Shown here in pieces: positions 7,536-60,258 of a stretch of DNA of 64,000 nt; position 1 is the stretch's first letter; each line of letters begins with the position of its first letter. Origin of the DNA: Gemmatales bacterium (GTDB taxonomy: Bacteria > Planctomycetota > Planctomycetia > Gemmatales > HRBIN36). The position numbers and the translations under genes are program-made. A model generated the notes under the pieces. It searched no databases and was not told where the DNA came from. It was given only the letters and a program-made list of their open reading frames with translations. The stretch covers positions 1,152,001 to 1,216,000 of the forward strand of contig JBEPZY010000001.1 of NCBI GenBank assembly GCA_041640595.1. Reading direction: 5' to 3'.

Positions 7536-7647
7536 CCTGACAATCCCTATGCGATCCTTGCGGGTGATTCTGGGACGGGCGGCTGGGACCGGTCTTCTTC
7601 ATCACCGTCCTGACAATCCTTTTGCGGTGTTTGCGGGCGAGTCGGGT
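7536..7647. repeat. Imperfect direct repeat (2 x 39 bp, 30/39 identical) with 34-bp unique spacer
   Basis: cctgacaatccctatgcgatccttgcgggtgattctggg (7536-7574) versus cctgacaatccttttgcggtgtttgcgggcgagtcgggt (7609-7647). Confidence 0.7.
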
Positions 7648-7876
7648 GTTTACAAGCCTAGCTTTGAACTGCTGGCCTGTCAAAAAGCCCGCGCATAAAA
7701 AGGGCGAGAGAGGGTCCCCTCAGAAGCTCCATGCTCTCCCTCTCTCGCCTGGTACTGACGCCCCTCCCCAAAGGCGTCAGACCGCCAAAGAGCAGGGACC
7801 ATGCACAGTTGGCTGCGCCTCTCTTTGGTCGCACAAATTTAGGTCGCGAATCGCTCCCTGTCAAACGGAGAAGACC

Positions 7877-9334
7877 ATGCCCCCTGGGGCGAAACTTCCT
7901 GATACTGGCATCCGTTACCGTGTGCTCGCCTTTTTGTGTCTGCTCTCCATGATCACGTACCTGGACCGAGTCGCTATGGGGGCAGCCGCACCGGCGATTG
8001 CCAGTGCCCTGTTCGGACCGGGAACTGGTGTCGAGGTGTTGAAGTGGGCGTTCACTGCTTTCACGTTCGCTTACGCCACTTTCGAAGTGCCTAGCGGTTG
8101 GCTTGGGGACGTCTTCGGACCGAAACGCACGCTAATCCGCATTGTGCTGTGGTGGTCTGCATTCACCGCCCTGACCGGACTCACAGCCTGGGAAATCACC
8201 AACGGCTGGCATGTGTTCGGCACCGGCACCGTCGCTCTGGGCTGGCTGATCGCCATTCGCTTTTTATTCGGCGTGGGAGAAGCAGGAGCCTATCCGAATA
8301 TCACCCGTGCCCTGCACAACTGGATGCCGTTTAGCGAACGGGGTCAGGCCCAGGGAGCGGTATGGTTCAGCGGCCGACTCATGGGCGGGCTCACGCCGTT
8401 ATTGTGGGTCGTGCTGGTGGAATGGTTGTTGGGACGCGGTTTGGGCCTTCACGAGGACAGTAGCTGGCGAGTTGCTTTCTGGATTTTTGGTGGCATCGGT
8501 GTGCTCTGGTGCGTGGCTTTCGCCCTGTGGTTCCGCGATCGTCCCGAAGAACATCCCGGCGTCAGTCCGGGAGAGCTGGAGCGCATCCGTTTCGGTCGCC
8601 TGGAGGAAGAAACAGCACACAGCGGCGTGCCCTGGCTGCGATTACTTACCGACCGCAATCTGTGGGCGCTGTGCCTGATGTATTTCTGTGCCGCCTTCGG
8701 CTGGTACTTTCACATCACCTATTTGCCCGGTTTTCTGGAACGACATTACGGGGTGGCGCGCGAGAGTCTATTGGGCGGGTTGTTCAAAGGTGGGCCTCTC
8801 ATTTTCGGTGCACTCGGTTGCATCATTGGTGGCTGGCTTACTGACCGCTGGATTCGCCGTACCGGTGACCGCAAATGGGGACGCCGGCGGTTCGGTATTC
8901 TAGGCCATCTGCTTTGTGCGGCCTGCTTTCCGTTATGCATCGTGGCCCCGTGGGCCTGGCTGTTTGCGTTGTGCATCTCCCTGGCGGCTTTCTGGAACGA
9001 CATTACTATGGGGCCCAGCTGGGCCGTTTGTCAGGACATCGGCAAGCGTTACGCTGCTATTGTGGCCGGCTGCATGAACACCATCGGCAATCTGGGAGGT
9101 GCGGCTGCCAATTTGGTAACCGGCACGGTGGTGCAATGGGCAAAATCGTATTACGCCACCACACATTCCGAACTCGCAGCCGAGCGTATCGGTTACGATC
9201 TCAATTTCGGTCTGTTCGCTCTGGTTTACCTCACTGCCGCCGGGCTGTGGTTCTTCATAGACGCCACCCGACCGGTCGCCGGGCAGCTTGAAGAATTTCC
9301 CGGGCCAACAACTTGCAGTGGTTCGTCCGAGTAG
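7877..9334 (+). CDS. MFS transporter (anion:cation symporter / sugar-acid type)
   Basis: ITYLDRV, FEVPSGWLGDVFGPKR, RFLFGVGEAGAYP, ERGQAQG and MNTIGNLGG motifs; about 12 hydrophobic segments; GGAG RBS before ATG 7877. Confidence 0.9.
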   Translation: MPPGAKLPDTGIRYRVLAFLCLLSMITYLDRVAMGAAAPAIASALFGPGTGVEVLKWAFTAFTFAYATFEVPSGWLGDVFGPKRTLIRIVLWWSAFTALTGLTAWEITNGWHVFGTGTVALGWLIAIRFLFGVGEAGAYPNITRALHNWMPFSERGQAQGAVWFSGRLMGGLTPLLWVVLVEWLLGRGLGLHEDSSWRVAFWIFGGIGVLWCVAFALWFRDRPEEHPGVSPGELERIRFGRLEEETAHSGVPWLRLLTDRNLWALCLMYFCAAFGWYFHITYLPGFLERHYGVARESLLGGLFKGGPLIFGALGCIIGGWLTDRWIRRTGDRKWGRRRFGILGHLLCAACFPLCIVAPWAWLFALCISLAAFWNDITMGPSWAVCQDIGKRYAAIVAGCMNTIGNLGGAAANLVTGTVVQWAKSYYATTHSELAAERIGYDLNFGLFALVYLTAAGLWFFIDATRPVAGQLEEFPGPTTCSGSSE

Positions 9335-9538
9335 CCTCGCGGCGAGCGATAGCCGGGCGACTCAGCCTGACGCACAGGGCTGATGCACTCGGTATCGGTT
9401 TCGCCATGCGATAGATCGCCGGGCGATGTTGGCCAGCACGGTTAGTGAGCCGGGCTTTGGACGGCGGGAAGGCTTGTCTGTATAACACGATGGAGGCACC
9501 CAGCAAACTCGGCCAGCAACTCGAATGGAAGCTCAACC

Positions 9539-10174
9539 GTGAATGGCCGCGTAGAGTCCGACCTGCAAGCTCTGATTGTTCGCTGGCAACAAGGCGACCT
9601 GAGTGCTGCCAACTCTCTTATCCAGTGTACCTGCGACCGCCTGGAAGAGCTAACGCGGCGACTTTACCATCGCGGTTTCGAACACGTCCACCGTTGGGAG
9701 GACACGCACGACATTTTGCAGCGAGCCCTGATGCGTTTGTGGCGGAGTTTACTCCAATCGCCTCCGGCCAGCCTGGCCGACTATTTCTGCCGTGCTGCCA
9801 CGGCCATTCGACGCGAATTGATTGACCTGTGTCGCCATTACTATGGACCGCAGGGAATGGCCAGCCACCACGACACGGGAAAATTCGTGGTTACCGATAC
9901 GGGCAAAGTAAAAACGCTCGTCGAAGAAACCGCCTCTCCCGAAAACGAGCATCCCCCGCTTCTATCCGAACTCACCGAGTTCCATCAGCAGGCCCAGCAG
10001 TTACCGGAACCGGAACGGCAGGTTTTCGACTTGCTGTACTATAATGGACTGACCGCCGCCCAGGCAGCAGCTATTCTGGGCATCAGCAAACGCACGGTCT
10101 TTCGCCGGTGGGAATCGGCGCGTGCTCTGCTGGCGCGCTACTGGCGGGGATCAGCGCCACCCGGAACGGCATGA
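9539..10174 (+). CDS. ECF RNA polymerase sigma-70 factor (planctomycete type)
   Basis: Region 2 (DILQRALMRLW...IRRELIDLCR) and region 4 (LPEPERQVFDLLYYNGLT..QAAAILGISKRTVFRRW). Confidence 0.85.
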   Translation: MNGRVESDLQALIVRWQQGDLSAANSLIQCTCDRLEELTRRLYHRGFEHVHRWEDTHDILQRALMRLWRSLLQSPPASLADYFCRAATAIRRELIDLCRHYYGPQGMASHHDTGKFVVTDTGKVKTLVEETASPENEHPPLLSELTEFHQQAQQLPEPERQVFDLLYYNGLTAAQAAAILGISKRTVFRRWESARALLARYWRGSAPPGTA

Positions 10175-11214
10175 CCACGGTAACTAACCCATTGGATGCT
10201 GGGCCAATTATTGAAACCCACGGCCTGACCAAAATCTATCGCGTTTATCAGAAACAGGAAGGCTTGCTGGGAGCAATCCGGGGTTTATTCCGCAGGCGGT
10301 ACCGGGAAGTTCGTGCCGTGGACGGTATCAGTTTCCGCATCGAATCCGGCGAAATCGTTGGCTTTTTAGGACCCAACGGTGCGGGTAAAACCACCACCCT
10401 GAAAATGCTCTCCGGCCTCATTTATCCCACCTCGGGCACAGCGCGAGTGCTCGGCTTCGTTCCCTGGGAACGGGCCAATGCCTTCCGCCGACAACTGGCC
10501 CTGGTCATGGGGCAGAAGAACCAACTGTGGTGGGACCTCCCCGCTGCTGACAGTTTTGCCCTGCACCGGGCCATTTATTCTCTGCCTCTCGATCAATTTC
10601 AGCAGACGCTGGACGAATTAACCGACCTTTTTGGCGTCGCCCATCTGCTGCGTCAACCGGTTCGTGAGCTGTCCCTGGGCGAACGCATGAAAATGGAACT
10701 CATCGCAGCATTGTTGCACCAGCCTCGCCTGCTGCTGCTGGATGAGCCGACCATCGGTCTGGATGTCGTTGCCCAGGTAAGTATCCGGCGCTGCTTGCGT
10801 GAATACAATCGTCGCCGGGGCGTTACCATCCTGCTCACCAGCCATTACATGAAAGATGTCGAAGCGTTGTGTGAACGAGTGATGGTAATCAGGCATGGCC
10901 AGCTGATCTACGACGGCCCACTCGCCGGCATCATCGAACAGTTCAGCCAATCCAAACTGGTGAAACTCCAGCTGGCCGAAGAAGCTGACCCTGTACCCTT
11001 TCGCCGCTACGGCGAAGTGGTCCACGCGGATGGCCCCCTGATCGAGTTACGTGTGGAACGGCGACGGTTGCCGGAGGTGCTCGCCGCTATCCTCGACCAT
11101 CACCGCGTCCTCGACCTGAATGTTCAGGATCCGCCTCTGGAACAGGTCATTGCCCGCGTCTTCGAAGAGCCGCTAACAGCCCATGAAACCGACTCTCAGC
11201 TCACTATCGTTTGA
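10171..11214 (+). CDS. ABC-2 type transporter ATP-binding protein
   Basis: GPNGAGKTT, LSLGERMK, LLLDEPTIGLD, LTSHYM; ATGA overlap with the sigma gene. Confidence 0.9.
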   Translation: MTTVTNPLDAGPIIETHGLTKIYRVYQKQEGLLGAIRGLFRRRYREVRAVDGISFRIESGEIVGFLGPNGAGKTTTLKMLSGLIYPTSGTARVLGFVPWERANAFRRQLALVMGQKNQLWWDLPAADSFALHRAIYSLPLDQFQQTLDELTDLFGVAHLLRQPVRELSLGERMKMELIAALLHQPRLLLLDEPTIGLDVVAQVSIRRCLREYNRRRGVTILLTSHYMKDVEALCERVMVIRHGQLIYDGPLAGIIEQFSQSKLVKLQLAEEADPVPFRRYGEVVHADGPLIELRVERRRLPEVLAAILDHHRVLDLNVQDPPLEQVIARVFEEPLTAHETDSQLTIV

Positions 11215-12088
11215 GCAAGCCGACCGCTCGGACGATTCTGGTAATGTCTGGCCACGTGCCTCCTTTTTGCTCGAGGCAGGCAAATATGGCCGGATTCTCC
11301 GCATCGCTCTGGTGGAACGTCTGGCCTATCGGCTCGACTTTATCCTGAGCACCTTGCTGCGTTTTTTGCCGATGCTGACCACCATTCTGCTCTGGCTGGC
11401 CGTTTACGCCGGCGCCGGACGATTGTCTGAGGGAGAACTGGGCGGATTTAGCCTCAATGAGATGATCTCCTATCTGCTGCTGGTGCACATCAGCCGGATG
11501 TTTTCGAGCATGCCGGGATTGGCGCAGGGAATTGCCCGTGATATCCGCGACGGCAACCTGAAAAAATATCTGTTGCAGCCCATCTCGCTGCTACCTTATC
11601 TCCTGGCATACCGGGCCGCGCACAAAGTGGCCTACATCACCATGACCGCCGTTCCCTATGCCGTGCTCTTTTTCCTTTGCCGCGACTTTTTCGCAGGCTG
11701 GCCCAGCGCTCCGGTGCTGCTGGCGTATGCGCTTTCGCTGGTTCTTGGATTCCTGGTCGGCTTTTTCTTTGAGGCTGCCCTGGGAATGCTCGGCTTCTGG
11801 TTTCTGGAGGTATCGTCCTTTCTTTACGTGGTCGGCACACTGAATTTCTTTCTGTCCGGACACATGTTTCCGTTCGATTTGCTCCCGGCTACGTTCGCAC
11901 ATATCCTGAAAAACCTGCCCTTCCAGTATCTGGCTTATTTCCCGGCGGCGATCTTTCTGAACAAGGTGCCGCAGGACATGCTGTTTTCAGCACTGGCTAC
12001 CGAGGCGGCATGGGCGATCGCTCTGGCGCTGCTGGCTGGTTGGCTATACCGTTGCGGTCTGCGTCGCTATAGCGCTTACGGAGGCTGA
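11183..12088 (+). CDS. ABC-2 family permease (DUF990-type)
   Basis: About 6 TM segments, IRDGNLKKYLLQP, FLSGHMFPFDLLP, C-terminal GLRRYSAYGG; start uncertain. Confidence 0.85.
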   Translation: MKPTLSSLSFEQADRSDDSGNVWPRASFLLEAGKYGRILRIALVERLAYRLDFILSTLLRFLPMLTTILLWLAVYAGAGRLSEGELGGFSLNEMISYLLLVHISRMFSSMPGLAQGIARDIRDGNLKKYLLQPISLLPYLLAYRAAHKVAYITMTAVPYAVLFFLCRDFFAGWPSAPVLLAYALSLVLGFLVGFFFEAALGMLGFWFLEVSSFLYVVGTLNFFLSGHMFPFDLLPATFAHILKNLPFQYLAYFPAAIFLNKVPQDMLFSALATEAAWAIALALLAGWLYRCGLRRYSAYGG

Positions 12089-12090
12089 AG

Positions 12091-12900
12091 ATGCGTGCCC
12101 TGCTGCATTACGCACGGGTCTGGCTGGCGTTTGCCCGTTTCGGATTGATGCGCGAGCTTTCCTTTCGTGGCAACTTTTTGATCAAAGTCAGCGTTGAAAT
12201 ACTCTGGCTGGCCATCCTGCTCATCTTTTACGACATGGTCTTCACCCATACCCGCGTTGTCGCCGAATGGAGCCGGGACGAATACCTCTTTTTCGTCGGT
12301 TGCTACTACGCTCTTGGCGGGGTCATCGAAACTTTCTTCCTGATCAACTGCAGCGAGTTTTCCGAACTCGTACGCACCGGTGATTTGGACTTCTACCTGC
12401 TTTTACCGGCGAATGAACAGTTCCTCATTACCACCCGCGATCTCGACTGGGCGACTTTGCCCAACATCTTTCTGGGAGCGGGCGTCAGTATCGTGGCGCT
12501 GGAGCGGCTCGGCTGGCCAGTCGAGCTGGGGCGTTTGCTCTTGTTCCTGATACTTTTCGGCTGCGGTGTAGCCCTTGCGTACAGTTTTCTGGTACTTTTG
12601 ACGGCAGCTTCCGTCTGGCTGGTGCGCAATCAAAGTCTGTACGAGGTGTGGTGGCTCTTTACTACCTTCATGCGCTATCCGCGGGAAATCTTCACCGGAC
12701 GCTGGGCGTATCCGATCGGCTGGTTCTTTAGCTTCGTCGTACCGTTGATCATCGTCACCAACGTGCCGGCGCGGGTGATGGTGAAAGCCCTGGAACCGGA
12801 ACTGGCCGTTTATACCGTGCTCGCCAGCGTTGTGCTGGTGGCAATCAGTGGCAAAATCTTTCGCCTGTCTTTACAACACTACCGTAGCGCCAGTAGCTGA
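12091..12900 (+). CDS. ABC-2 family permease (second subunit)
   Basis: VRTGDLDFYLLLP, MRYPREIF, C-terminal YRSASS; about 6 TM segments. Confidence 0.85.
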   Translation: MRALLHYARVWLAFARFGLMRELSFRGNFLIKVSVEILWLAILLIFYDMVFTHTRVVAEWSRDEYLFFVGCYYALGGVIETFFLINCSEFSELVRTGDLDFYLLLPANEQFLITTRDLDWATLPNIFLGAGVSIVALERLGWPVELGRLLLFLILFGCGVALAYSFLVLLTAASVWLVRNQSLYEVWWLFTTFMRYPREIFTGRWAYPIGWFFSFVVPLIIVTNVPARVMVKALEPELAVYTVLASVVLVAISGKIFRLSLQHYRSASS

Positions 12901-12995
12901 ATGCACATGTGCTCGTGGCCCCAACTTGCAAAAATGCGTCGGGATTTGGCGTAACCGTGTCGAGATCACGTCGAGATCACCTGGAGGAAGACCGC

Positions 12996-14411
12996 ATGGT
13001 ACAAGCAAACCGGCACGCCCGGCTGCGATCGGCGAGCTTTCGGCATGGAACGTGTTTCACGCCCGCAGGTCTTGCTTTGGTTATTGGCCTGGCGTGCTGG
13101 CTGGGAATACTTCCTGTCAGCAGTCAAGAGAAAAATTCCTCGGCCGAGCGGGTACTGGTTGGTGCTGCGGCAGTAGCATTGCAGGCCGATGACAGTATGG
13201 TCATCGGCGGAAGCATTTTCCCCGGGCGTGCTTCCGGTCAGGAGGGAGAATTGCGGGCAGTTGCCGTGGTACTCGAAAAACCAGGCCAGGGCCGACTGGC
13301 GATCGTCTCCTGTGATGTTCTGATGTTGACGCGGGACTTGCTCGATCCGGTGGCGGAACAGGTTGCCAGGGAGTTTGATATCCCCGCAGATCGGTTGCTG
13401 ATCCACGCCACGCACACTCACCACGCTCCCAGTACCGTGACCGTACACGGCTACGAGCGCGATGAGGTTTTCTGCCGGCGAGTACAGGAAGGGATTCGGT
13501 CGGCTCTGGCCAAAGCGGTTGCGCAACGGGCTGAGGCGGAGTGTTATTTTGCCCTTGGTCAGGAAGCTACGGTTGGACAGAACAGCCGACTGCTGCTGAG
13601 CGACGGTACGATTTACTGGATCGGACCGCGAGAAGATGCAGTGCGACCGACGGGGCCTTTTGATCCCGACCTGCCAGTGTTGGCGTTTCGCCGTCAGGAT
13701 CGCTGGGTGGCTGTGCTTTTCAATCATTCAACGCACACCATCGGCACACGCAAGCCGGGCGTGCGTTCGCCTTCTTTTTACGGTCTGGCAGCACAGGAAC
13801 TCGAACAGGAGCTGGGAGGCATCGTGTGTTTTCTGGAAGGCGCCTCCGGCTCAACGCACAATCTGAACGTGCCATGTCACGAGGCGGTTTACCGTATCAA
13901 GTCGGCAGTGCGGGCCGCGCTGCATGATGCGCGACCGATCCCGATTGCCAGGCTGCGTGGCGTCCGCAAACCGTTCCGCTTTCGCATCCGCCACTTTGAT
14001 GAAATGCAGGAAGAGCAAGCGGTTTTGCGCTATTGCCGTCGGCGTGCCGAGAAAAATGCCGAGGCCATCGCTGCGGTCTTCCGCAAACAGCGCCAGATTC
14101 TGGCTCCGCTGCAAGGGCAGGAACGCACTACCTGGTTGCAGGTGCTCCAGATAGGCGACATCACGCTGGCCGGTGTGCCTGGCGAGTTTTTCACCAAACT
14201 CGGGCTGGACATCAAACGCCGTTCGCCTTTCCGTTACACCTACATTGCCGAGCTGGCCAATGATTGGATCGGTTATTTGCCCGATCGGGAGGCTTTCAAG
14301 CTGGGTGGCTACCAGACCTGGACGGGCCTGCACAGCTATGCCGAGCCCGGAACCGGCGAACGCATCGTGGACGAGATCGTCAACTTGCTCACCGCTTATC
14401 ACCAGCATTAA
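12996..14411 (+). CDS. Neutral/alkaline ceramidase-like metalloamidohydrolase
   Basis: HATHTHHAP, GPFDPDL, GVPGEFF and ELANDWIGYLP..EAFKLGGY motifs; GGAGG RBS before ATG 12996. Confidence 0.75.
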   Translation: MVQANRHARLRSASFRHGTCFTPAGLALVIGLACWLGILPVSSQEKNSSAERVLVGAAAVALQADDSMVIGGSIFPGRASGQEGELRAVAVVLEKPGQGRLAIVSCDVLMLTRDLLDPVAEQVAREFDIPADRLLIHATHTHHAPSTVTVHGYERDEVFCRRVQEGIRSALAKAVAQRAEAECYFALGQEATVGQNSRLLLSDGTIYWIGPREDAVRPTGPFDPDLPVLAFRRQDRWVAVLFNHSTHTIGTRKPGVRSPSFYGLAAQELEQELGGIVCFLEGASGSTHNLNVPCHEAVYRIKSAVRAALHDARPIPIARLRGVRKPFRFRIRHFDEMQEEQAVLRYCRRRAEKNAEAIAAVFRKQRQILAPLQGQERTTWLQVLQIGDITLAGVPGEFFTKLGLDIKRRSPFRYTYIAELANDWIGYLPDREAFKLGGYQTWTGLHSYAEPGTGERIVDEIVNLLTAYHQH

Positions 14412-14895
14412 ACGACGCCGGTTCGCGTTGACAGGCATCTGGGCACAATGGCCTCCACATCGCATATATCCGGGCCACGGTTGGAAACCAACCGGGCATT
14501 GCCTGGTGTCATTGTGTTGCGCACTCACGCCATTTCAAAACCGTAAATCGGTGGGGCTAAGCAAGACGGCGTGCGTTGTCGGCAATAATGCACATAACGC
14601 CGCATCAGCACATGGCCCGTTAGTTTCGACTGCTCTGCGACAGGCTGAAAGAGTAGCTGGCAGCAGCAGAGCTATTTCACGGGTTATGTCGGTGGGTTGG
14701 GCAGGCCAGAAGGGCAATCGGCGAGCGCTTGGCAGGATTTTTGAGATCGGCGGAGGAGAGCGTAAAATATGGCACAGAAGGTGTGGGGATGGAGACAGGC
14801 CGGTCGAATCTGACTTGTACACGGGGAGGACTCGCAACAATCGGCAATAAGGAAAATTCGAAGGAGCGGCTGACGCAGGTCGGCCAGCATACGCT

Positions 14896-15858
14896 ATGCC
14901 TCTAACGCTCGAAGAGTATGCGGAATATCTGGACAAGCGTGGGGACTTAAGCTGGCCTGCTCCGCCCACGCTTGCACCGCGGAAAGCCCGTCCCCACCTG
15001 GTTGGCCTGCCCGGAATACGTGGTGTGGTGTGGAGTTGTTACGGTGTGCTGGTGGCCATCAGTGGCGGCGAGCTGGTCTGGCTGCCGCAAGATAAGTTTG
15101 TTGCGGAATTGGCCTTCGAGAAACTCGTGCGGGAATTCAAGTTATGGCAGGCGATGACCCGCCGACCGGGAAACCCGGCCGAACATCTCCGCGTTATGTA
15201 TCAAACCGCCCTGGATGAACAGCAATTCCAGGCCGGCGGTCGTGATCGCTATCCGGAGGTGCGAGCCGAGAAGGTCTGGGAAGCCGTGTTCAAGAAACTC
15301 AAACCGAGCGAATTCAATTTCGATCCGCTTTTTTACGGCAGTCTCGACGAGTTCTGCCTGAAGGTGGCCTACTTTTACCAACGCAGCATCCAGGGCACCC
15401 AGGCCATGCCGGGAGCACTGGCCATGCTGCAGTGGGTATCGGAACACTTGGAGTTTCAGGGGTTGCTTGCCGATGGGCAGGCCTTCAGCTGGCTGCATAT
15501 TCAGCGTGGATTGCAGGAGGAAGGTTGGAAAAGGCCCCTGGAAGATCTGCTGCCGCAGCGCTGGCAGGTCTGGTCTTATCAAGTGGGTGGGCGCAAACCC
15601 TCGGAACGGTTGTTTCGGGAAATGCTGGATCGCCTGCAGCAAGCCGGCCTGGAGCCAGCCGAGGTTCTGCTCGTGGGTTGCCGCATCGAAGAAGACATAG
15701 CCCCAGCGCGTCGGTGGGGATTTCGCACGGCGCTGTTTGTCGGCGATAAGCAAGCCGTTCGCGCCAAAAGTACACAACTCGCCGATCCCCGTTTGCGGCC
15801 CGATGTGCTCCTAACTGACCTTACTCAACTGCGCGAGTGTCTCGCCGGCAATACGTAA
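14896..15858 (+). CDS. HAD-like fold protein with degenerate catalytic motifs
   Basis: RKPSERLF, EVLLVGCRIEEDIAPARRWGFRTALF, PDVLLTDL; motif I reads WSCYGVLV. Confidence 0.7.
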   Translation: MPLTLEEYAEYLDKRGDLSWPAPPTLAPRKARPHLVGLPGIRGVVWSCYGVLVAISGGELVWLPQDKFVAELAFEKLVREFKLWQAMTRRPGNPAEHLRVMYQTALDEQQFQAGGRDRYPEVRAEKVWEAVFKKLKPSEFNFDPLFYGSLDEFCLKVAYFYQRSIQGTQAMPGALAMLQWVSEHLEFQGLLADGQAFSWLHIQRGLQEEGWKRPLEDLLPQRWQVWSYQVGGRKPSERLFREMLDRLQQAGLEPAEVLLVGCRIEEDIAPARRWGFRTALFVGDKQAVRAKSTQLADPRLRPDVLLTDLTQLRECLAGNT

Positions 15859-15931
15859 TCGTTTCGTCCTGCCAACCGCTGGTCATTTTTCCGCCACGTG
15901 TCATCTGCGAGCTAACACGTGTCTCCAACCG

Positions 15932-18229: not shown

Positions 18230-18281
18230 CGCATCGCTTCCTTGAAATCGCCCTGCAAAGCCAGCGCCCGAATCTTTTGCA

Positions 18282-35859: not shown

Positions 35860-36416
35860 GTTCCCGCATGAACGCAGGCTTACCCAATGGCTCGACGTTT
35901 GACATGTCCCGATCGGCAAGCTAAGTTTCAGCGGGCGCACCGACACTCGCGGACAAAGTCAGGCTAGGCTCTGTCACGCATTCGGCAGCGTTATGTTATA
36001 ACTTTATAGCCACAGGGCTGTCGTGAGGAAATCGAATTGGGGCAATCCAGGAGGCTGGGAGGCCATGCGCTACATGATCACGGATGAAATGTGGGTGGTT
36101 ATCGAGGAATGTTTGGCCCAAGCGAAGATAGAAAAACGGGGCCGACCCGCAGAGATTTCCGACCGCAAGTTCCTCGAGGCCTTGCTCTCCTTGCTCTACG
36201 TGGCGCGAACGGGGATTCCCCGACGGGATTTGCCCAGGGAATTTGGGAAATGGGATGCGATTTACAACCGGTATCGCCGCTGGCTCAAAAACGGTACGCT
36301 GCAGAGGCTGTTTGAGTTGCTCACTGCCCACCCAGAGTTAGCGGCCATCAGACGCATCCTGATAGATGCCACGAATGTGCGAGCCCATCGGTGCGCGGCA
36401 GGGGCACCGAAAAAAG

Positions 36417-36517
36417 GGTCTGCCTCCGAGCAGGGTCCGCGTGGGAGTCGGCAGTTGTAAGTGGTCGGACAAGCGAAGTTCCGGTCTGCCTCCGAACAGG
36501 GTCTTGGTCGGAGTCGG
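36417..36517. repeat. Repeat-spacer-repeat unit inside the transposase (35 bp x2, 30/35 identical, 31-bp insert)
   Basis: ggtctgcctccgagcagggtccgcgtgggagtcgg / cagttgtaagtggtcggacaagcgaagttcc / ggtctgcctccgaacagggtcttggtcggagtcgg. Confidence 0.85.
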
Positions 36518-36681
36518 GGTGGATTCTCGACGAAGATGGTGCTCACTGCCCTAGATGAGAACACACCGGTGGCCGTAGAGCTGTTACCTGGTCAGGTGCA
36601 TGAAGCAACGCAGGTCGAGAAGATGCTTGATGCGAGCCAAGCACGTCTTCCTCAGATTGAGGAAGCGGTGGTGGATAAGGG

Positions 36682-36848
36682 GTTTGACGGTGAGCCACAG
36701 CGGGCAGCTATGGTCGCTCTTGCATGCATTGTTGGCCCCCCTGTGCGGAGTTTGACGGTGAGCCTCAGCGGCAAGCGATGTTGTGAGTTCGCCTGCGCCT
36801 CCGGGTCGTTGTCCGCGTTTGACGGTGAGCCACAGCGGCAAACCATGG
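36682..36848. repeat. Three 32-bp repeats with 36- and 35-bp unique inserts inside the transposase (mini-array-like)
   Basis: gtttgacggtgagccacagcgggcagctatgg (36682), gtttgacggtgagcctcagcggcaagcgatgt (36750), gtttgacggtgagccacagcggcaaaccatgg (36817). Confidence 0.9.
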
Positions 36849-37087
36849 CAAGTCGGAACATCCGGCCGGTGATTCCCTATCGAGCCAATCGGCAAAAAGG
36901 GGGGGCGACTAAACCGGAAGGCGTATGCGGAGCGTAACAAGATAGAACGGCTGATTGGCAAGTTGAAAGAGTTTCGTCGCATCGCCACACGATATGACAA
37001 GTTGAAAGAGACATTTCTTGGCATCATTCAACTGGCTCTCGCATACATTTGCCTAAAAGCTAAGTTAATCGTCAACAGAGCCTAATT

Positions 37088-47707: not shown

Positions 47708-47718
47708 CCAAGGCCAGG

Positions 47719-52332: not shown

Positions 52333-52357
52333 GGATGAACCGGAGAGGAGGTCAGTA

Positions 52358-53767
52358 GTGCAGGCGACAGCAACGCGACGCTTGCGCGTGCTTTTTGCCG
52401 ACGACGAACCCCACTTGCGAGAATTGCTCCAGACCGAATTGAGCCGCCTCGGACATTACGTTACGGTTTGTCCGGATGGCCCGAGTGCTCTCAAAGCCCT
52501 GGAAAAGGGGAGTTACGACGCGGCTATTCTGGATATTCGCATGCCCGGCATGAGCGGCCTGGAAGTGCTCATGCGGATGAAACAAATTGCACCCAATACC
52601 GAGGCGATTTTGCTGACCGGCCATGCCAGCCTGGAATCGGCGGTGGAAGCGTTGCGGCTGGGAGCGTTTGAATATATCACCAAGCCGTGCAAGCTGGCGG
52701 AAATCGAAGCGGTGTTACGCCGCATTGCCGAGAAAAAAGAACTCACCCTGCACAATCTCGCCTTGCAACGCCGCCTGCGCGCTGCCGAAGGGCCGACTGT
52801 GCTCATTGGCGAATCTCCGCCCATGCAGCAGGTGCGACGCCTGATTGCAACCATCGCCCCTACCGACGCCACGGTGCTGATTTTGGGAGAGACCGGCACC
52901 GGCAAGGAACTGGTGGCCCGCATCATCTACGAACAAAGCCGGCGTGCGGCTATGCCTTTTGTTCCGGTTAATTGTGGTGCTCTTTCGGAAAACCTGGTCG
53001 AGAGCGAACTCTTCGGACATCGCAAAGGCGCGTTCACCGGTGCCGACCGCGACCATAAGGGATTATTCGAGGTGGCCAACGGGGGTACCCTGTTTCTCGA
53101 TGAAGTGGCAGAGTTGAGCAAGCACATCCAGGTGAAACTGTTACGCTTTCTGGAATCGGGCGAGATTCGCCGCGTCGGTGAAACTGAACCGTTTCGCACG
53201 GACGTGCGGGTGCTGTGTGCCACCAACCGAGACCTGCGGCAGATGGTGGAACGCGAGGAATTTCGTGAGGACCTTTACTTCCGCATCAACACTTTCGAGA
53301 TTCATCTCCCACCGTTACGGGAGCGACGAGCGGATATTCCGGAGCTAGCCCGGCATCTTCTGGCGCGGGCAGCACGCAAACCGGTGGAACAGGTGGCGGA
53401 ATTGCTGCGTCCAGAAACACTTGACGCCTTGCTGGAGCACGATTGGCCTGGCAATGTTCGCGAACTGGCCAACGCCATGGAGCATGCCTGGATCGTTTCC
53501 GGTGGCGGGATGATTACTCCCGATCACCTGCCGCGGCACGTCGTGGAACGTGCTGCCGGGGTCAGTCTGGCCACAGTTCGACAGCACGGTCCTGGAGAAC
53601 CCCCGCAGCCACGCACCCTGCGCGAAGTGGAAATGGAACACGTGCTCCGCGTTCTGGAAAAACATGGCGGTAACAAACCCGCGGCCGCTGCTGAACTCGG
53701 CATCAGTCTGAAAACACTTTACAATAAACTGCATCAGCTCGAGGCCGAGCGCAAACAGGCGGGCTAG
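52358..53767 (+). CDS. Sigma54-dependent response regulator (NtrC/AtoC family)
   Basis: REC domain, [31 protein letters not shown], Fis-type HTH. Confidence 0.95.
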
Positions 53768-53939
53768 CCCATTTCCATGGGGCTATCAACCTAAAAGTCT
53801 GCCCAGCAACGACGGCACATACACGGAGCATCTGTCCAGCCTGTACGCCTCATCGCTCTTTTTGAGGACAGAGCGGTCAAACTTTTCGGGTTAGAAGACC
53901 GGCCAGCGACGGGCAACATTTTCCACAGGATACGTGGCC

Positions 53940-54380
53940 ATGTCGAGCGAAGCTGTTAGCCGCACCACGCCGGCAACTGCTGGCCAGAATCGGGGCGAAG
54001 TATCAGCACGTCCACCGCGACGCTGGCGGGATAAGTTCGCCGATGCTTTCCGCGGTCTCAAGCTGGGAATCCGTGGGCAGTCCAGCTTTTTCGTACATTT
54101 TTTCGTGGCCGCCGCTGCCCTGGCTGCTGCTTGGGTAATGGCCCTGGACTGGGTCAGCTGGTGCTTGCTGCTGTTATGTATCGGCATGGTTTTGACAGCT
54201 GAGATGTTCAACAGCGCCCTGGAGACGTTTTGTCGCGGTCTGGACGAACCCAGCCGTAACCGTTGTGCCCCGGCTCTGGATATTGCCGCAGGGGCAGTGC
54301 TTTTAGCGGCGAGCACGGCAATTCTTGTCGGGGGAGCAATTTTTCTGGTTCGGCTGGCTGTTTTGCTGCACTGGTTCTAA
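53940..54380 (+). CDS. Diacylglycerol/undecaprenol kinase family (DgkA-type)
   Basis: F..AFRGL, AEMFNSALE, ALDIAAGAVL; 3 TM segments. Confidence 0.85.
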   Translation: MSSEAVSRTTPATAGQNRGEVSARPPRRWRDKFADAFRGLKLGIRGQSSFFVHFFVAAAALAAAWVMALDWVSWCLLLLCIGMVLTAEMFNSALETFCRGLDEPSRNRCAPALDIAAGAVLLAASTAILVGGAIFLVRLAVLLHWF

Positions 54381-54446
54381 AAGAGCCGCACCGTTGACTA
54401 AAATAATCGAGGCGAGGACGGAAACTCATCCTGGAGAGGGCTGCTT

Positions 54447-55169
54447 ATGCGCGTCCTGGTGGCTATTCCCGTATATAACGAAGAGCGGAACGTTGTGACG
54501 GTGTTGCGACAGGTTCGGGAATGGGTGAGCGAAATCCTGGTGGTCAATGACGGTTCGACCGATGGCACAGCCGATTTGCTGGCCCGGGAAAAAGACCTGC
54601 ATTTGATCACACACCGGCAGAATCGGGGTTACGGAGCGGCGATCCGCTCGGCCATGGCGTTTGCCCTGGCGCATCGTTACGAGGTGCTGGTGACCATGGA
54701 CTGCGATGGCCAGCACGAACCGCACCGGATTCCCGTGTTGCTGGAAGCCCTCAGCGAGGAAATCGAGCTGGTCTCCGGCTCACGTTACCTGCGCCGTTTT
54801 CATCATGACGACGAACCGCCACACGACCGCAGACACATCAATCAAGTCATCACCCAGGAGCTCAACCAGCGACTTGGTTTGCAAATCACGGATGCTTTTT
54901 GCGGTTTCAAAGCCTATCGGGTGCGTGCGCTCAAAGACCTGGACCTCGACGAAGATGGCTGGGGCATGCCTTTGCAACTGTGGGTACAGGCAGCGTTTTT
55001 AGGCTGGCGAATCCGCGAAGTGGCTGTCCCGCGCCTCTACCTTGACCCCCATCGAGCTTTTGGCGGTACGTTGAACGATCCCGAGGTGCGGCTGGCTTAT
55101 TATCGCAGTGTCCTCGAACGGGAACTAACCCGCTGTCTCATTGGCTGGCGGGGAGGCTACCGCGGATGA
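54447..55169 (+). CDS. Glycosyltransferase family 2 (DPM-synthase-like)
   Basis: IPVYNEE, VNDGSTD, NRGYGAA, MDCDGQH, ITDAFCGFKAYR. Confidence 0.9.
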   Translation: MRVLVAIPVYNEERNVVTVLRQVREWVSEILVVNDGSTDGTADLLAREKDLHLITHRQNRGYGAAIRSAMAFALAHRYEVLVTMDCDGQHEPHRIPVLLEALSEEIELVSGSRYLRRFHHDDEPPHDRRHINQVITQELNQRLGLQITDAFCGFKAYRVRALKDLDLDEDGWGMPLQLWVQAAFLGWRIREVAVPRLYLDPHRAFGGTLNDPEVRLAYYRSVLERELTRCLIGWRGGYRG

Positions 55170-56869
55170 ATGCCGCCAGATGGCATGCCCCGCAGGAAGA
55201 CGGTGGCACACTCATCGAACCACCACCGTCCAACTGGCCTGAATGTGTAAAGACCAACGCCGAGTGTTTCCGGACAATCGAGACGCGATTCTGTGGCATT
55301 TCGTTGGCCGATTGGCGCAGCGAACTGCGCACCCTGGTTGCGCAATTGGCAAGTGTTCAGCTTCAGCGCTGGGGCGAAAATGTCCGCTGGCCCGAGGGAG
55401 GATTTCTGGTAACCGGCCATCAACCGGAATTGTTCCATCCCGGCGTCTGGGCCAAGTGCTTTGCCCTTGCCGAGGCTGCACCAAAAATCGGATTAGTCCC
55501 ACTGAATTTGATCGCCGACCACGACCAGCCGAAGCCTCTGGCCATTCGTGTCCCAGTCCGCAATGAACGGGGGCTGACTACGGAGTGGGTTCCGTTCTGC
55601 GATGCCAGCCCTGCCCTGGCATGGGAAGAATACGCTGTTAGCTGGGGACAGGAATACTCGTTACCAACACTGCAGGCACAACTTCAATCGAGCCCGCCTA
55701 TCCCCACACAGTCGGCACCAAACTTGTGTTCGGAAGAACGTTTTCAAAATTTCCCCAAACAGGTCGTGCGAATATGTGGTGATTTGTTACCGGAGATGAT
55801 TCTGCCGGACTTCTGGTCGTTAGCGATGGAGCTAGCGGCGCGACTCAATCCCCCGGCCTGCCTCGCGGAGACTTTGTCCGGAGCCAGAAGGCTCTGGGAA
55901 CAGCGCTGGGGTTATCACAACGCCGAATTGCGAGTCTCGGCCCTGTCAGATACGGAACCGTTTCATGCGTTTGTCGTCACGTTGCTCGATCAATTGCCGA
56001 GCTTTGTCCAGCAACACAACGCCGAACTGTACGCTTTTCGACGCGAGAACCGTCTGCGCAGTCGCACCCATCCGGTGCCTCCATTGCGGAGCGCTGAGGG
56101 TTGGTGCGAATCTCCTTTCTGGGCGTGGACGCGTGGCCAACCGCGACGACCGTTATGGTGGTCTGCTCGGAACGATGGCTGGCAATTGCGTTTGGGGGAA
56201 GCCGGCCCAATTCTTCACGTCCGCGCCGTTCGACGTCGGGAAGATTTATCAGTCTGGCGGCAGGCACTTCAGCAGGCCGGGTGGAAAATTCGTCCCCGCG
56301 CACTGACCCTGACACTTTTCGTCCGCCTTTTCCTTGCTGAGCTGTTTGTGCACGGCATCGGTGGAGCAATTTACGACCGGTTTACCGACCGACTACTATG
56401 GCGTGTGTGGGGAATCAAGCCGCCGCACTACACGGTGGTTTCGGCAACGTTGCGGTTACCATTGCCGCGTCCGGCAGTACCCTCGTGGAACCGTGCGGAG
56501 TTATTACAGCGTGTGCGCGATTGCCAGTTTAACCCCGACCGCGTCTTACCACCGCAAGCCCTGGCGCTACCGCAAGTGCAATCGCTGGTAGCGCGCAAAC
56601 GAGCTCTTCTGCAGCAATGGGCTGAGGCTAGCCGAGAGCAACGACCGGTCCTGCATCGGCAGCTTGCAGAAATCCGCGAGGCTTTGCGGCCTATGACGCG
56701 GCAGGTCGAGGCAGAGCTACGCCAGCGACTCAATATGCTCGCCCATTATCAGGCACAATCGGCTCTGGTAACGGCTCGCGACTGGGCTTTCGTCTTATAC
56801 AGTGACAGCGCGTTGACACACCTGGTGGAAATCGTCCGGCAAAAATTCTCGGTGTTGCGAGGCGTTTGA
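55166..56869 (+). CDS. Hypothetical protein, distant BshC-like
   Basis: VTGHQPELFHPGVWAK, D.D, RPRALTLT...FVHGIGG..YD, C-terminal coiled coil; ATGA overlap with the GT2 gene. Confidence 0.6.
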   Translation: MNAARWHAPQEDGGTLIEPPPSNWPECVKTNAECFRTIETRFCGISLADWRSELRTLVAQLASVQLQRWGENVRWPEGGFLVTGHQPELFHPGVWAKCFALAEAAPKIGLVPLNLIADHDQPKPLAIRVPVRNERGLTTEWVPFCDASPALAWEEYAVSWGQEYSLPTLQAQLQSSPPIPTQSAPNLCSEERFQNFPKQVVRICGDLLPEMILPDFWSLAMELAARLNPPACLAETLSGARRLWEQRWGYHNAELRVSALSDTEPFHAFVVTLLDQLPSFVQQHNAELYAFRRENRLRSRTHPVPPLRSAEGWCESPFWAWTRGQPRRPLWWSARNDGWQLRLGEAGPILHVRAVRRREDLSVWRQALQQAGWKIRPRALTLTLFVRLFLAELFVHGIGGAIYDRFTDRLLWRVWGIKPPHYTVVSATLRLPLPRPAVPSWNRAELLQRVRDCQFNPDRVLPPQALALPQVQSLVARKRALLQQWAEASREQRPVLHRQLAEIREALRPMTRQVEAELRQRLNMLAHYQAQSALVTARDWAFVLYSDSALTHLVEIVRQKFSVLRGV

Positions 56870-56889
56870 ACCCATAGCGGTTCACCGGA

Positions 56890-59145
56890 CTAGGCCGCTT
56901 GGCTGTGCGACCAGCAACAGGAGGACGCCTTGCCCACTGCATTCAAGGTACGTTTACGCTCCGCCACTTCGTAAAAGATATCGAGCAGAGCCCGGTACAA
57001 ATGATCCATCGTCCAGTCTGCGGCAGCACGACGAGCATGCAGGGAACATTGCCGGCGGATATCTGGTTGGGAGAGCAAATCCAGATACTCCGCCAGTCTC
57101 CAGTAATCATGCGGGTCATCCAGCACGAAACCGTTCAGCGGCGGGGTCAACAATTCGGCGGCGCCGTTGTAGCAGGTGGTGATGACGGGCAAACCGCAGG
57201 CCAGGGCTTCCATGACTACCAGCGAACAGGGATCGTAAAAGGTGGGATGCACGACAAAATCCGCAGCGAAGAAGCAGCGTCGCACGTCCGCTTGGTAGCC
57301 GAGAAAATGTACCTGTTCACTCACGCCCAACCGGTGAGCAAGTTGTCGGTAAGCGACATCCTTCCGACTGCCGCAAACCAGCAACCGCAATGGTTTGCCG
57401 CGAAGAACCTGCATGGCCTGGAGAAGTGTCCCCAGCCCTTTGAGGGGATAGTTGTGGCCGACGAACAACGCCACCGGGACATCGGGGGCGATGCCCAGGC
57501 GTTGCCGCATTTCCTGCCGCAGATTTTCCCGCTGGTCCTCGGCGAATCGCTGAGGATCAATGGCGGCATGCAAAACACGAATTTGGTCGGCAGGAAGATG
57601 GTAATAGCGTTGACAATGGCGTTTGACCATATCGCTTACCGCGATGATCAACGGTCGGCGTCCGCGACAAAACTGTTTGCGCTCCAGCAGTAAATACGAC
57701 CAGTAGCAGATGTCCAGCATGCGCCACACTCGAGCTATCCCCCGTCGCCACCAACTGCGATAGCGCAGGATGTTGTGGTCGGCGTTGGCCACATGCAAAC
57801 CGCCTCCGAGAATGATTACGTCCTGGTGCCAGGTTTTGACAAAGCCGACCGTAACGTCAAAATGCTGTTGTCGCAGGGCATCTTCGCAGGATTGTGCGAA
57901 ATACCACGGCCGCAAAAACCGCGGCATCCACCGCATCGGCAAACGGTGGAAAATGAGGCTGTCTGGCAAAGCCTCCGCATCCCGCTGCCAGGCAAAGAGG
58001 TGAACCTCGTGACCGTCTCGTATCAGTCGGCGAATCAGATCCACGATAAAGACTTCCATGCCCCCACGGGCCGGATACACTTTGTCGTAACACAGCGCAA
58101 TCCGCAGCGGTACTGGATGGCAGGGCAGAATGGACGAAGAACTGTTCCCGCTACTCCAGACACGAAGGCCTGCCGCCCGACCTCCACTGCTCTCCGACGG
58201 CGTTTCGATTGTTGGCGTGGACGGTTGGTCAGATCGTGATGAACTCGTTGTCGCCTCAGTATGTATCCACCAGTTTCGCTTGGATTGTACACCGGCGTGA
58301 TGGGCATTTTGCCGGCGATAGCGTTCGGCTTTGCGCAGGACTCGACGCAATAGGCGCAGGTCGCATGGGTTTAGCTGGTCGCGATTCAGGTAGGAGCGGA
58401 AGAAGATCATCCAGTCGTCCGGCTCCAGGCCCGGTACGGACATGGAGAATGCTAATTGTGCTAAATCCTTGGTTCGCCAGCGCCAAACGAGCCAGTTATG
58501 CTGTCGCATCCGGTGCAGGTCAATCAGATAGATCCGGTCGCGCAATTCTGCATCGGGGCGCAAACACTCAGCGGGCAGGAAAAAGTGGCACAGGTACAAA
58601 TCCTTGTGGAATCGTTGGGCAGCATGTAAGCGACGCACCAGCTGACCCAGATGCTGGAGCAAGCACGTTTTCCAGTGCTGAAACTCCTGCGGAGTAAGCA
58701 TTCGCCAGGCAAGCGGTATAGCCTGGTGCAACGGAAGCATGTCTTGGAGCTCGCGCACCGCCAGGAAACTTTGCAGACGCAAGCCCGGTCCAAAATGTTC
58801 TCCTGCGGCCAGGGCTTCAGGGACAGCCAATCCCGCTGCTTTCGCCCATTGCAGGTTTCGCCATTCCTGCATGGCACTGGATTCCCCGAACCCACATAAC
58901 ACCGTCAGACGCTGCCACAACGGTAACCAGTAGTGGCGTTTCAAAAAAAGAGTCAATTGACCGTCGGGGCCGCTCACGGTCAACTTCCCCACCGAACGCC
59001 CTTGCTTGGAACTGGCGATTTCCTGCACCGACCACCGCAGCACATCTTGCACGGCAGCCTCGCCGAAGTAGCGCCGCCAGGTCGGTGTGCTTTCCACCAC
59101 GACTTTTCCTCGCCGCCAGCGTTGCCACCATGCATACCAGCTCAT
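56890..59145 (-). CDS. LPS kinase (Kdo/WaaP family) fused to a GT4 glycosyltransferase
   Basis: FLKRH, EWRNL, HKDLYLCHF, LIDLHR; Ser/Thr-rich linker; GGME, FVGHNYPLKG, PTFYDPCSLVVMEALACGLPVITT. Confidence 0.88.
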   Translation of the reverse strand: MSWYAWWQRWRRGKVVVESTPTWRRYFGEAAVQDVLRWSVQEIASSKQGRSVGKLTVSGPDGQLTLFLKRHYWLPLWQRLTVLCGFGESSAMQEWRNLQWAKAAGLAVPEALAAGEHFGPGLRLQSFLAVRELQDMLPLHQAIPLAWRMLTPQEFQHWKTCLLQHLGQLVRRLHAAQRFHKDLYLCHFFLPAECLRPDAELRDRIYLIDLHRMRQHNWLVWRWRTKDLAQLAFSMSVPGLEPDDWMIFFRSYLNRDQLNPCDLRLLRRVLRKAERYRRQNAHHAGVQSKRNWWIHTEATTSSSRSDQPSTPTIETPSESSGGRAAGLRVWSSGNSSSSILPCHPVPLRIALCYDKVYPARGGMEVFIVDLIRRLIRDGHEVHLFAWQRDAEALPDSLIFHRLPMRWMPRFLRPWYFAQSCEDALRQQHFDVTVGFVKTWHQDVIILGGGLHVANADHNILRYRSWWRRGIARVWRMLDICYWSYLLLERKQFCRGRRPLIIAVSDMVKRHCQRYYHLPADQIRVLHAAIDPQRFAEDQRENLRQEMRQRLGIAPDVPVALFVGHNYPLKGLGTLLQAMQVLRGKPLRLLVCGSRKDVAYRQLAHRLGVSEQVHFLGYQADVRRCFFAADFVVHPTFYDPCSLVVMEALACGLPVITTCYNGAAELLTPPLNGFVLDDPHDYWRLAEYLDLLSQPDIRRQCSLHARRAAADWTMDHLYRALLDIFYEVAERKRTLNAVGKASSCCWSHSQAA

Positions 59146-59246
59146 CCTGGTCTCCGGTTCTTCCGTAAAATCTTCGCTCAGCCAGTCTCTCGAATCGCCC
59201 GAGGTCACGCAGCTAGCCAACTTGCGCTGTGGCAAGTTTCAGACAA

Positions 59247-60086
59247 TCACGCGTCAGCATAAAGGAGGCAATCCTGGAGAGCTACCTGCCAGCGCCGCTT
59301 GCGTACCACCGTTTCACGGCAACGCTCAGCTTCGCGCCGCACAGCTTTCCACAAAGGCAGACACCGGGCGCCAGTCGGTTGTAGTCGGTCTCCTCGTAGT
59401 TGGCCGGCGGTCAAACGCCCCAGATAGGTTTCCAGGAACTCCCGAAATTCCCCTGCTCTAGCCTGCCCTTGCGGCAGGGACGAAGCCAGTTTGGCCAGTT
59501 CGCGGATGCGTTCGGGCCAAGGGACGAACTTGTCCTGCCAGGAGCGAGCCAAATCGAGTACACCGATTTCCTGGTCAGTTAACCGCACGTAAATGTGCCA
59601 GGCATACAGATCGGGGTGGGCCAACCCGGCTCCGTGAAACTTAGCGAGCCAACTGGCCAATCGTTTCAATAGGCCTTGCCATTCCTCGGTAGAGGCTCCA
59701 ATAGCGTATTTGTCCAGTGGTACGCAATCCTGAAGTTCGGCAGTCAGCAAAAAGCCCTGCGAGCCGCGCTGCCCACAAGCCAGCACTGTTGGCACCAGAA
59801 AACCCGCCGCCTGTGCTCGGCGTAACATCCGCCATTCACGAACCGATTTGCCTACTGGTCCAAAACCATCCCACCAGTTGCGGAATTTTTCCTTGGCAGC
59901 AATGCGAAATTCTCGTTTCAGATACGCCGTCAATGGCCCCAAGCGCAGGCGTGTTACACTACGGCTACCGTTTTGCCGACGCCGCACCACCACACCTTGG
60001 CTCACCTTCAAAAAATCATCGAAGCGCAGCAGATTTTGTTCCTGCAGCAGGGTCAGGTAACCAGGATGCCGCCACAGCAATTCCAT
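59247..60086 (-). CDS. LPS kinase (Kdo/WaaP family)
   Basis: YLKRE, REW, HPDLYAWHI, LDLAR; GGAGG RBS before ATG 60086. Confidence 0.8.
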   Translation of the reverse strand: MELLWRHPGYLTLLQEQNLLRFDDFLKVSQGVVVRRRQNGSRSVTRLRLGPLTAYLKREFRIAAKEKFRNWWDGFGPVGKSVREWRMLRRAQAAGFLVPTVLACGQRGSQGFLLTAELQDCVPLDKYAIGASTEEWQGLLKRLASWLAKFHGAGLAHPDLYAWHIYVRLTDQEIGVLDLARSWQDKFVPWPERIRELAKLASSLPQGQARAGEFREFLETYLGRLTAGQLRGDRLQPTGARCLPLWKAVRREAERCRETVVRKRRWQVALQDCLLYADA

Positions 60087-60146
60087 CGGCTCGCCTCCGT
60101 GCTCGAAAAGACCTAATAATTGGCAATTGGGAAACAGCACTCGGCT

Positions 60147-60258
60147 CGCTTCCGTGCTTTCGCTGTAATCAAGGATGATAAGGCCTCGGGGCGGGCAAAT
60201 CTCGCAGTGGGGTTAGACCACCGCTTCCGTGCTTTCGCTGTAATCGAGGATGATCAGG
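60147..60258. repeat. Repeat-spacer-repeat unit (37 bp x2, 35/37 identical, 38-bp spacer), intergenic
   Basis: cgcttccgtgctttcgctgtaatcaaggatgataagg (60147-60183) and cgcttccgtgctttcgctgtaatcgaggatgatcagg (60222-60258). Confidence 0.9.

Follow-up and report, generated by a model that had tools for sequence, protein, structure and literature searches.

Four loci in a 64,000-nucleotide stretch of a planctomycete genome carry a short local sequence duplicated around a unique, spacer-sized insert, and each is very probably the scar of a full-site integration of a spacer, by the Cas1-Cas2 integrase of a CRISPR system, into DNA that is not part of an array. The stretch, referred to here as the window, spans positions 1,152,001–1,216,000 of contig JBEPZY010000001.1 from Gemmatales bacterium assembly GCA_041640595.1. 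Contigs of this genome are denoted by C and a number, the window being C1:1152001–1216000, and positions given without a contig are those of the window. The initial annotation, which raised ectopic spacer integration as a possible origin, described four repeat-insert-repeat loci with repeats that differ from locus to locus. Our repeat search of the window returned exactly these four loci, with a distinct duplicated sequence at each. Their parts are as follows (strand given where one is assigned; nt, nucleotides).

7536–7573: locus 1, left copy, 38 nt, long-period class, 79% identical to the right copy at a spacing of 73
7574–7608: locus 1, insert, 35 nt, spacer-sized and unique, with no other match in the genome
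7609–7646: locus 1, right copy of the duplicated target (repeat search)
36023–37085, plus strand: IS5-family transposase gene (NF033580), broken by three probable spacer insertions (loci 2 and 3)
36417–36451: locus 2, left copy, 35 nt, 86% identical to the right copy at a spacing of 66, with 4 clustered differences from the ancestral sequence (paralog alignment)
36452–36482: locus 2, insert, 31 nt when delimited by the 35-nt match, or 36 nt for a 30-nt duplication
36483–36517: locus 2, right copy, the ancestral sequence, identical to the C10 paralog
36682–36713: locus 3, copy 1, a 31–32-nt target starting GTTTGACGG
36714–36749: locus 3, first insert, ~36 nt, absent from both paralogs
36750–36781: locus 3, copy 2 (repeat search, paralog alignment)
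36782–36816: locus 3, second insert, ~35 nt (paralog alignment)
36817–36848: locus 3, copy 3, ancestral, running on into downstream transposase codons
60147–60183: locus 4, left copy, 37 nt, long-period class, 95% identical to the right copy at a spacing of 75
60184–60221: locus 4, insert, 38 nt, unique
60222–60258: locus 4, right copy (repeat search)

The duplicated targets measure 38, 35, 31–32 and 37 nt at loci 1 to 4. In the repeat search the copies of locus 3 start at 36679, 36747 and 36814, with spacings of 68 and 67; copies 2 and 3 are 82–85% identical to copy 1. The window inserts are unlike the neighbouring periods (identity 0.13–0.45; 0.20 and 0.30 for the locus 1 insert), and none matches any other part of the genome or any native spacer. 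Tandem Repeats Finder reported none of the four window loci, as would be expected where unrelated inserts separate the repeats. Locus 1 is placed between a minus-strand kinase-like open reading frame (ORF) and a plus-strand transporter ORF. The insert of locus 2 puts a TAA stop into the transposase frame. Locus 4 falls between two minus-strand genes; it is just upstream of the start of one gene, whose ribosome-binding region it duplicates.

The geometry of the window loci recurs across the genome. We scanned every offset from 40 to 110 for segments with at least 23 of 28 matches and removed native arrays, multi-copy families and similarity runs that fill the period. This gave 520 locus-unique pairs with periods of 40–110, of which 180 fall at 65–68 and 191 at 72–76; the other 62 period bins hold 149 pairs (2.4 per bin). 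A mononucleotide-shuffled genome gave 1 pair compared with 1633 in the real genome (native arrays included), which excludes chance. In a stricter, seed-based scan, 60 of 195 pairs belong to the short-period class and 73 to the long-period class. The genome-wide comparison with a shuffled control that the initial annotation had proposed therefore yields a sharp, two-peaked spectrum at the native unit lengths (see below).

The two classes differ in how the period is divided. The duplicated length has a median of 29.5 nt at periods 65–68 and 37 nt at periods 72–76 (Mann-Whitney p = 8e-11; modes 31 and 37), matching the native repeats of 30 and 37 nt, and the insert medians of 37 and 36 nt compare with native spacer modes of 36 and 37 nt. 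Because the period and its split into repeat and insert both equal native units, the scars copy two native systems. In 445 of the 520 pairs, the insert is less than 0.5 identical to the neighbouring period on either side. Chaining by register gives 345 loci: 325 with two copies, 17 with three and 3 with more. Two of the last 3 are false positives (a 72-nt protein repeat and a 148-nt tandem repeat); the other, C1:328961, has four copies (periods 66, 68 and 67) and looks like a real four-copy locus. At three loci, a short-period unit and a long-period unit occur together in one register.

Two kinds of ordinary repeat were also encountered in the spectrum. A tandem repeat common to C8:39353–39800 and C1:329450–329600 is built of 148-nt higher-order units that contain a 74-nt step; it resembles a long-period locus of several units, except that its 'spacers' are themselves repeated. 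Pairs of a repetitive extragenic palindromic (REP)-like element (~29 nt; core GAGCGGCGGGCGTCAGCCCGCCGTGG), many of them 88–93 nt apart (e.g. C2:38532–39928 and C2:228405–228901), give a third, unrelated peak in the raw period spectrum.

The integrase genes that ectopic integration would call for, and that the initial annotation proposed to look for beyond the window, are present twice. The genome (4.45 Mb), assembled from a metagenome into 42 contigs that include runs of N, contains two Cas1 and two Cas2 genes, each pair beside a large array. On C8, Cas1b (TIGR03641, 425 bits; cut-off 304), Cas4, Cas3, Cas5, a type I-B Cas7 and a Cmr module adjoin an array of 317 30-nt repeats, with Cas2 beside it; a further 27 repeats are at the end of C10. 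The spacers between the 30-nt repeats are 35–38 nt long, giving periods of 65–68 (mode 66). An array of 247 37-nt repeats on C1 is adjoined by Cas2, a reverse transcriptase (RT) of group-II-intron-like type (RVT_1, and TIGR04416 at 241 bits, below the cut-off of 300) and Cas1; its spacers of mostly 36–38 nt give periods of 73–75 (full range 72–76, mode 74). Both Cas2 genes were identified with PF09827 in a search of the whole genome; for the small ORFs beside cas1, Pfam and NCBIfam scans gave no Cas2 name. The periods of the window loci had initially been assigned to type I-C and to systems with 36–37-bp repeats. The 73–75 class corresponds to the RT-linked module with its 37-nt repeats, and the 66 class corresponds to type I-B (30-nt repeats, 36-nt spacers) and not to type I-C.

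Both arrays have spacers that match contig C15 (L103:1–9585), which is 9.6 kb long and has a G+C content of 0.50 compared with 0.576 for the genome. The matches involve 31 spacers of the 30-nt array, most of them at its cas-proximal end, and 1 spacer of the 37-nt array. The native protospacer-adjacent motif (PAM), CCN upstream, is present in 26 of the 32 alignments to C15, and the alignments are split 29 to 3 between the strands. Given the 31 matching spacers, the CCN motif and the strand split, we conclude that the type I-B module has been very active; the pattern of spacers on C15 looks like primed adaptation. Judged only by spacer targeting and low G+C content, C15 is likely a previously unrecognized virus or plasmid of this host; none of its 9 ORFs was matched in a PHROGs scan.

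A third small array, on C20:1210–1581, has a 30-nt repeat, spacers of 37–40 nt and periods of 67–70. A two-repeat mini-array at C3:328836–328932, far from any cas gene and beside another scar at C3:328732, has a degenerate native 30-nt repeat (26 of 30 matches) and a C15-like spacer. Short-period scars are located a few hundred bases from the leader end of the native I-B array at C8:21408–21507 and, in congener G003, at L016 281–907.

The ancestral state of loci 2 and 3 is preserved in paralogs of the insertion sequence (IS) in which they lie. Their repeats had initially been described as transposase coding sequence, and NF033580, an IS5-family transposase model, indeed matches the two ORFs that flank the locus 2 insert (profile positions 2–118 and 112–192). 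The window gene has paralogs at C10:64207–65195 and C1:11913–12487. Alignment with the window gene shows that the 66-nt block of locus 2 and the 135-nt block of locus 3 are missing from both paralogs, each of which contains a single copy of each target with no insert, that is, an exact empty site. The right-hand copies of loci 2 and 3 are the ancestral sequence, and the changes sit in the left-hand copies. The initial annotation had also allowed that the inserts might be degenerate parts of ordinary tandem duplications, which disagrees with their complete absence from the paralogous IS copies. For loci 1 and 4 the congeners provide no empty allele, because at 70–76% identity their intergenic DNA cannot be aligned.

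The junctions of loci 2 and 3, whose continuity the initial annotation had proposed to check, are bridged in Logan contigs assembled independently from public runs. The runs that contain the stretch are hot-spring and microbial-mat metagenomes, roughly 18 of them besides the source run. A contig from run X1 covers locus 2 (36387–36512, 0 differences), and the whole of locus 3 is spanned by contigs from X1 (36606–37014) and X2 (36642–36941), with 0 differences each; X1 and X2 are possibly the source data of the assembly, so that support from them is not fully independent. A contig from X5, which belongs to a different study, covers 36754–36850 (3 differences) and crosses from the second insert of locus 3 into the third copy. 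Contig joints that skip 65–67 and 135 letters originate from the paralogous empty IS copies. In run X3, from a related strain, 4821 other letters are found between 35967 and 37082, where this genome has the IS5 copy; the IS site therefore varies between strains.

The composition of the short-period inserts, and the origins of a few inserts that can be traced, suggest a likeness to native spacers. Short-period inserts have a G+C content of 0.549, compared with 0.551 for native spacers of the 30-nt array and 0.585 for the inserts' own flanks (p = 6e-8). The insert at C2:174386 has a 31-nt core (1 mismatch) in common with a native spacer, together with the same protospacer start. The insert at C3:643266 is identical at 34 of 34 positions to host DNA at C1:732922–732955; with a 30-nt duplication at that site, the spacer would be 37–38 nt long and would abut CCC, consistent with the native CCN PAM. 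Two further inserts resemble contig C15. Another match in the genome was found for 34 of 371 inserts, mostly in paralogous copies of the scar concerned.

The scars also differ from three familiar kinds of repeat. CRISPR arrays share a repeat, and here each locus repeats its own local sequence, the mini-array at C3:328836 being the sole exception seen. Minisatellites and tandem duplications do not fit, the inserts being unlike the adjoining units and absent from the empty alleles. Multi-copy inserts with common ends, as would mark an IS or a miniature inverted-repeat transposable element (MITE), were not found: 337 of the 371 inserts have no other genome match, and the inserts therefore make up no mobile-element family. 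Lacking a shared repeat, the scars are most likely non-functional.

The sites themselves favour one base. Read on each strand, the duplicated segments have G at the 5' end in 39 of 74 and 34 of 70 views, compared with 0.29 in the genome (p = 3e-5 and 5e-4), and a GTTxC-like start is visible in the duplicated segments of the long-period class. The native repeats likewise start with G, on both strands of the 30-nt repeat and on one strand of the 37-nt repeat. Mimicry of native repeats by the targets is not claimed, as the likeness is only marginally above that of random genomic segments. A resemblance of locus 1 to the 37-nt repeat (CAATCCC..TAT) was apparent by eye only.

Relatives were scanned by the same method on sampled DNA; pair counts are low, and the genomes, being related, are not independent samples.

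G001, same genus: RT-type cas1 only (37/38-nt repeat); 242 kb; 18 pairs, all at 69–76, none at 65–68
G002, same genus: RT-type cas1 only; 320 kb; 7 pairs, at 72, 74 and 76 with four elsewhere, none at 65–68
G003, same genus: both cas1 types; 671 kb; 16 pairs, 4 at 65–67 and 7 at 72–75
G006, other genus: weak partial Cas1 match; 400 kb; 2 pairs
G004, other genus: one Cas1; 208 kb; 1 pair
G014, other genus: one Cas1; 60 kb; 2 pairs

In the congeners, the period classes follow the Cas1 types found.

The two-peaked spectrum, the native cas1 and cas2 genes, the empty sites and the bridging contigs support the initial proposal of ectopic spacer integration. In the mechanism that we envisage, Cas1-Cas2 with a trimmed prespacer of 35–38 nt would attack ordinary chromosomal DNA by two staggered transesterifications, one on each strand. 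The cuts would be spaced by one native repeat length, ~30 nt for Cas4-Cas1b-Cas2 of the I-B module and ~37 nt for the RT-linked Cas1-Cas2, and both would fall preferentially 5' of a G. Gap filling would copy the stretch between the cuts to leave target copy, spacer and target copy. Loci 2 and 3 (periods 66, and 68 and 67) would derive from the I-B module, locus 3 having been hit twice, and loci 1 and 4 (periods 73 and 75) from the RT-linked module. Scars would persist mainly in non-coding or already dead DNA and would decay by ordinary mutation.

The distribution and decay of the scars can be followed across the genome. Crude ORFs cover 80% of the genome, yet both flanks lie outside them in 182 of the 345 loci and inside them in 77. 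The scars are depleted from coding DNA, as expected of neutral or harmful insertions. Most pairs carry 2–10 mismatches (1026 transitions vs 883 transversions), indicating that most scars are old and decaying. The initial annotation noted that the copies diverge toward their plus-strand 3' ends. This is so in the four window loci, but it is not general: the mismatch-rich side is the left in 30 and the right in 20 of 56 short-period pairs, and the left in 33 and the right in 22 of 58 long-period pairs. Clustering of mismatches is weak in a scan unbiased up to 5 mismatches (mean span 17.1 vs 18.4, p = 0.008, and 22.1 vs 23.3, p = 0.09). The 3' bias in the window looks like ordinary decay of old scars combined with ascertainment, by eye or by seed search, of pairs in which a long perfect run survives. 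For the end-clustered mismatches of the strict scan, error-prone gap filling and a prespacer flap were considered and then dropped, because clustering is weak and C-to-T changes are not dominant.

Several observations weigh against integration by Cas1-Cas2 as set out above. The identity of the enzymes and the chemistry of integration are deduced from genome sequence, and current activity rests on a few perfect pairs (7 of 180 short-period and 2 of 191 long-period). Empty alleles and contig bridging cover loci 2 and 3 only, out of the four in the window. Apart from paralogous scar copies, a source can be placed for only ~4 inserts (one native-spacer-like, one host, two C15-like). Duplication lengths in the strict set are more spread than native repeats (18–46 and 18–59 nt), and the likeness of targets to native repeats is slight (mean best matches 12.0 vs 11.05 for the control, and 14.0 vs 13.5). 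Bins 69–71 of the spectrum hold 7, 6 and 13 pairs, above the background of 2.4; the C20 array, with its periods of 67–70, might explain part of this excess. The peak counts include false positives, such as the leucine-rich-repeat-like 72-nt protein repeat at C4:319588 and the 148-nt tandem repeat at C8:39404. Among the relatives, the absence of I-B cas1 from G001 and G002 is read from genomes that are 87% and 93% complete.

Other origins of the structures can be weighed against these data. A lineage-specific error of copying or repair, such as minisatellite-like slippage or template switching, would make the match of periods coincidental and leave no role for CRISPR. It would suit scars that are mostly intergenic (182 of 345 loci outside crude ORFs on both flanks), that show neutral-like decay in both transitions and transversions and whose targets barely resemble native repeats, but we regard it as improbable: the spectrum peaks at two native unit lengths, the duplicated parts match both native repeat lengths, the inserts are foreign to their sites and absent from the empty alleles, one insert shares its protospacer with a native spacer while another adjoins the native PAM, and the short-period class is missing in relatives where I-B cas1 was not found. 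It is less probable still that the structures exist in no cell and arose as assembly artefacts or strain chimeras. The metagenomic origin of the assembly, its 42 contigs and runs of N, and the chance that X1 and X2 are its own source data leave room for such an origin; against it, locus 2 and the whole of locus 3 are bridged by contigs from another assembler, the X5 contig from a different study bridges the junction of insert 2 and copy 3, and an artefact is not expected to yield two CRISPR unit lengths and PAM-adjacent inserts. Least probable of all, to the point of being nearly negligible, are footprints or copies of a small MITE-like mobile element with long target-site duplications. Target duplication around an insert is the layout left by transposition, and some scars are present twice in the genome, but 337 of 371 inserts are unmatched, and the remainder are mostly paralogous copies that also share flanks. 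The listed events show no shared ends or terminal inverted repeats, and two discrete duplication lengths equal to the native repeats would be unexpected from one element.

A different possibility accepts the integrations as real and holds that some are kept as working young CRISPR arrays or as regulatory inserts. At least three copies are present at 20 of the 345 loci (at least two of these being false positives), three loci mix short and long units in register, C1:328961 has four copies, and locus 4, just upstream of a gene start, duplicates the ribosome-binding region there. These features notwithstanding, we consider retention for function unlikely, if slightly less so than a copying error: the repeats are local, with no motif in common for a Cas6-type processing enzyme, the copies decay freely, and the depletion from coding DNA is that of neutral or harmful insertions.

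Off-target integration by Cas1-Cas2 is a known kind of event. Nivala, Shipman and Church (Nat Microbiol 3:310) reportedly showed in 2018 that off-target integration by the type I-E Cas1-Cas2 of Escherichia coli gives rise to 'neo-CRISPR' loci, in work said to have used overproduced Cas1-Cas2 and supplied oligonucleotides; natural cases in two other species are termed circumstantial by citing authors. In such citing accounts, the likeness to the present scars includes a spacer-sized insert within a repeat-length duplication outside an array, Cas1-Cas2 as the agent, and re-hit sites that can start an array. Unlike the E. coli loci in these accounts, the scars described here are natural, number ~345 loci in one wild genome, have accumulated over a long time and recur in congeners; they involve an I-B module with Cas4 and an RT-linked module, and their targets are only weakly like the native repeat.

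Two further reports can be compared. Pyrococcus furiosus Cas1-Cas2 carries out full-site integration in vitro at non-CRISPR plasmid DNA (PMC6698737). In that work Cas1-Cas2 alone suffices for off-target integration, with cut spacing set by the enzyme and by features of the repeat, a point of likeness to the present case, but the P. furiosus off-target sites share specific repeat features (PMC6698737), whereas among the natural chromosomal scars studied here only the 5' G preference was detected. In Streptococcus thermophilus and S. mutans, 'ectopic spacer acquisition' denotes integration of spacers elsewhere than at the leader-proximal repeat; the streptococcal events are described as taking place at internal native repeats within the array (e.g. 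PMC7999890). Here, in contrast, unrelated chromosomal DNA is the target and local sequence is duplicated. Bacterial intergenic minisatellites (variable number of tandem repeats, VNTR) are alike in having short direct repeats at a fixed step, mostly in intergenic DNA, and a copy number that differs from strain to strain, but minisatellites repeat the whole unit whereas here only 30 or 37 nt are repeated and the remainder is unique and foreign-like. We found no report of natural genome-wide scars of this kind in the open-access literature searched.

The mechanism is of a known kind; the value of the case lies in its scale, its occurrence in nature, the two types of module and the sites that were hit more than once. 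The ~345 scars of a wild genome are a data set on a process known mainly from E. coli in the laboratory and from work in vitro. They give the target preferences of two integrases, suggest that the 30- and 37-nt ruler holds without a cognate repeat, show which insertions selection tolerates and quantify a hidden cost of adaptive immunity; the repeatedly hit sites are the proposed first step in the birth of an array. For annotation, they carry the warning that such pairs are neither mini-CRISPRs nor minisatellites. A bolder extension, which we put forward tentatively and consider to have the odds against it, is that two integrases, one of them RT-linked, chronically write spacers throughout the chromosome, that a first unit makes its site preferred, and that arrays are born in this way. 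Preference for a first ectopic unit would explain why some sites have reached three or four units and why some have been used by both systems in the same register. If this is true, ordinary DNA in the wild can give rise to new arrays and repeat families, and adaptive immunity carries, in off-target integration, a mutational cost that can be measured.

A possible further, atypical event is located directly upstream of locus 4, at 60086–60158. It consists of an 18-nt duplication (60086–60103 and 60141–60158, 94% identical) around a 37-nt insert, with a period of 55, and takes in the ribosome-binding region of a gene on the minus strand whose start is at 60084. This duplication may represent an integration with a short stagger.

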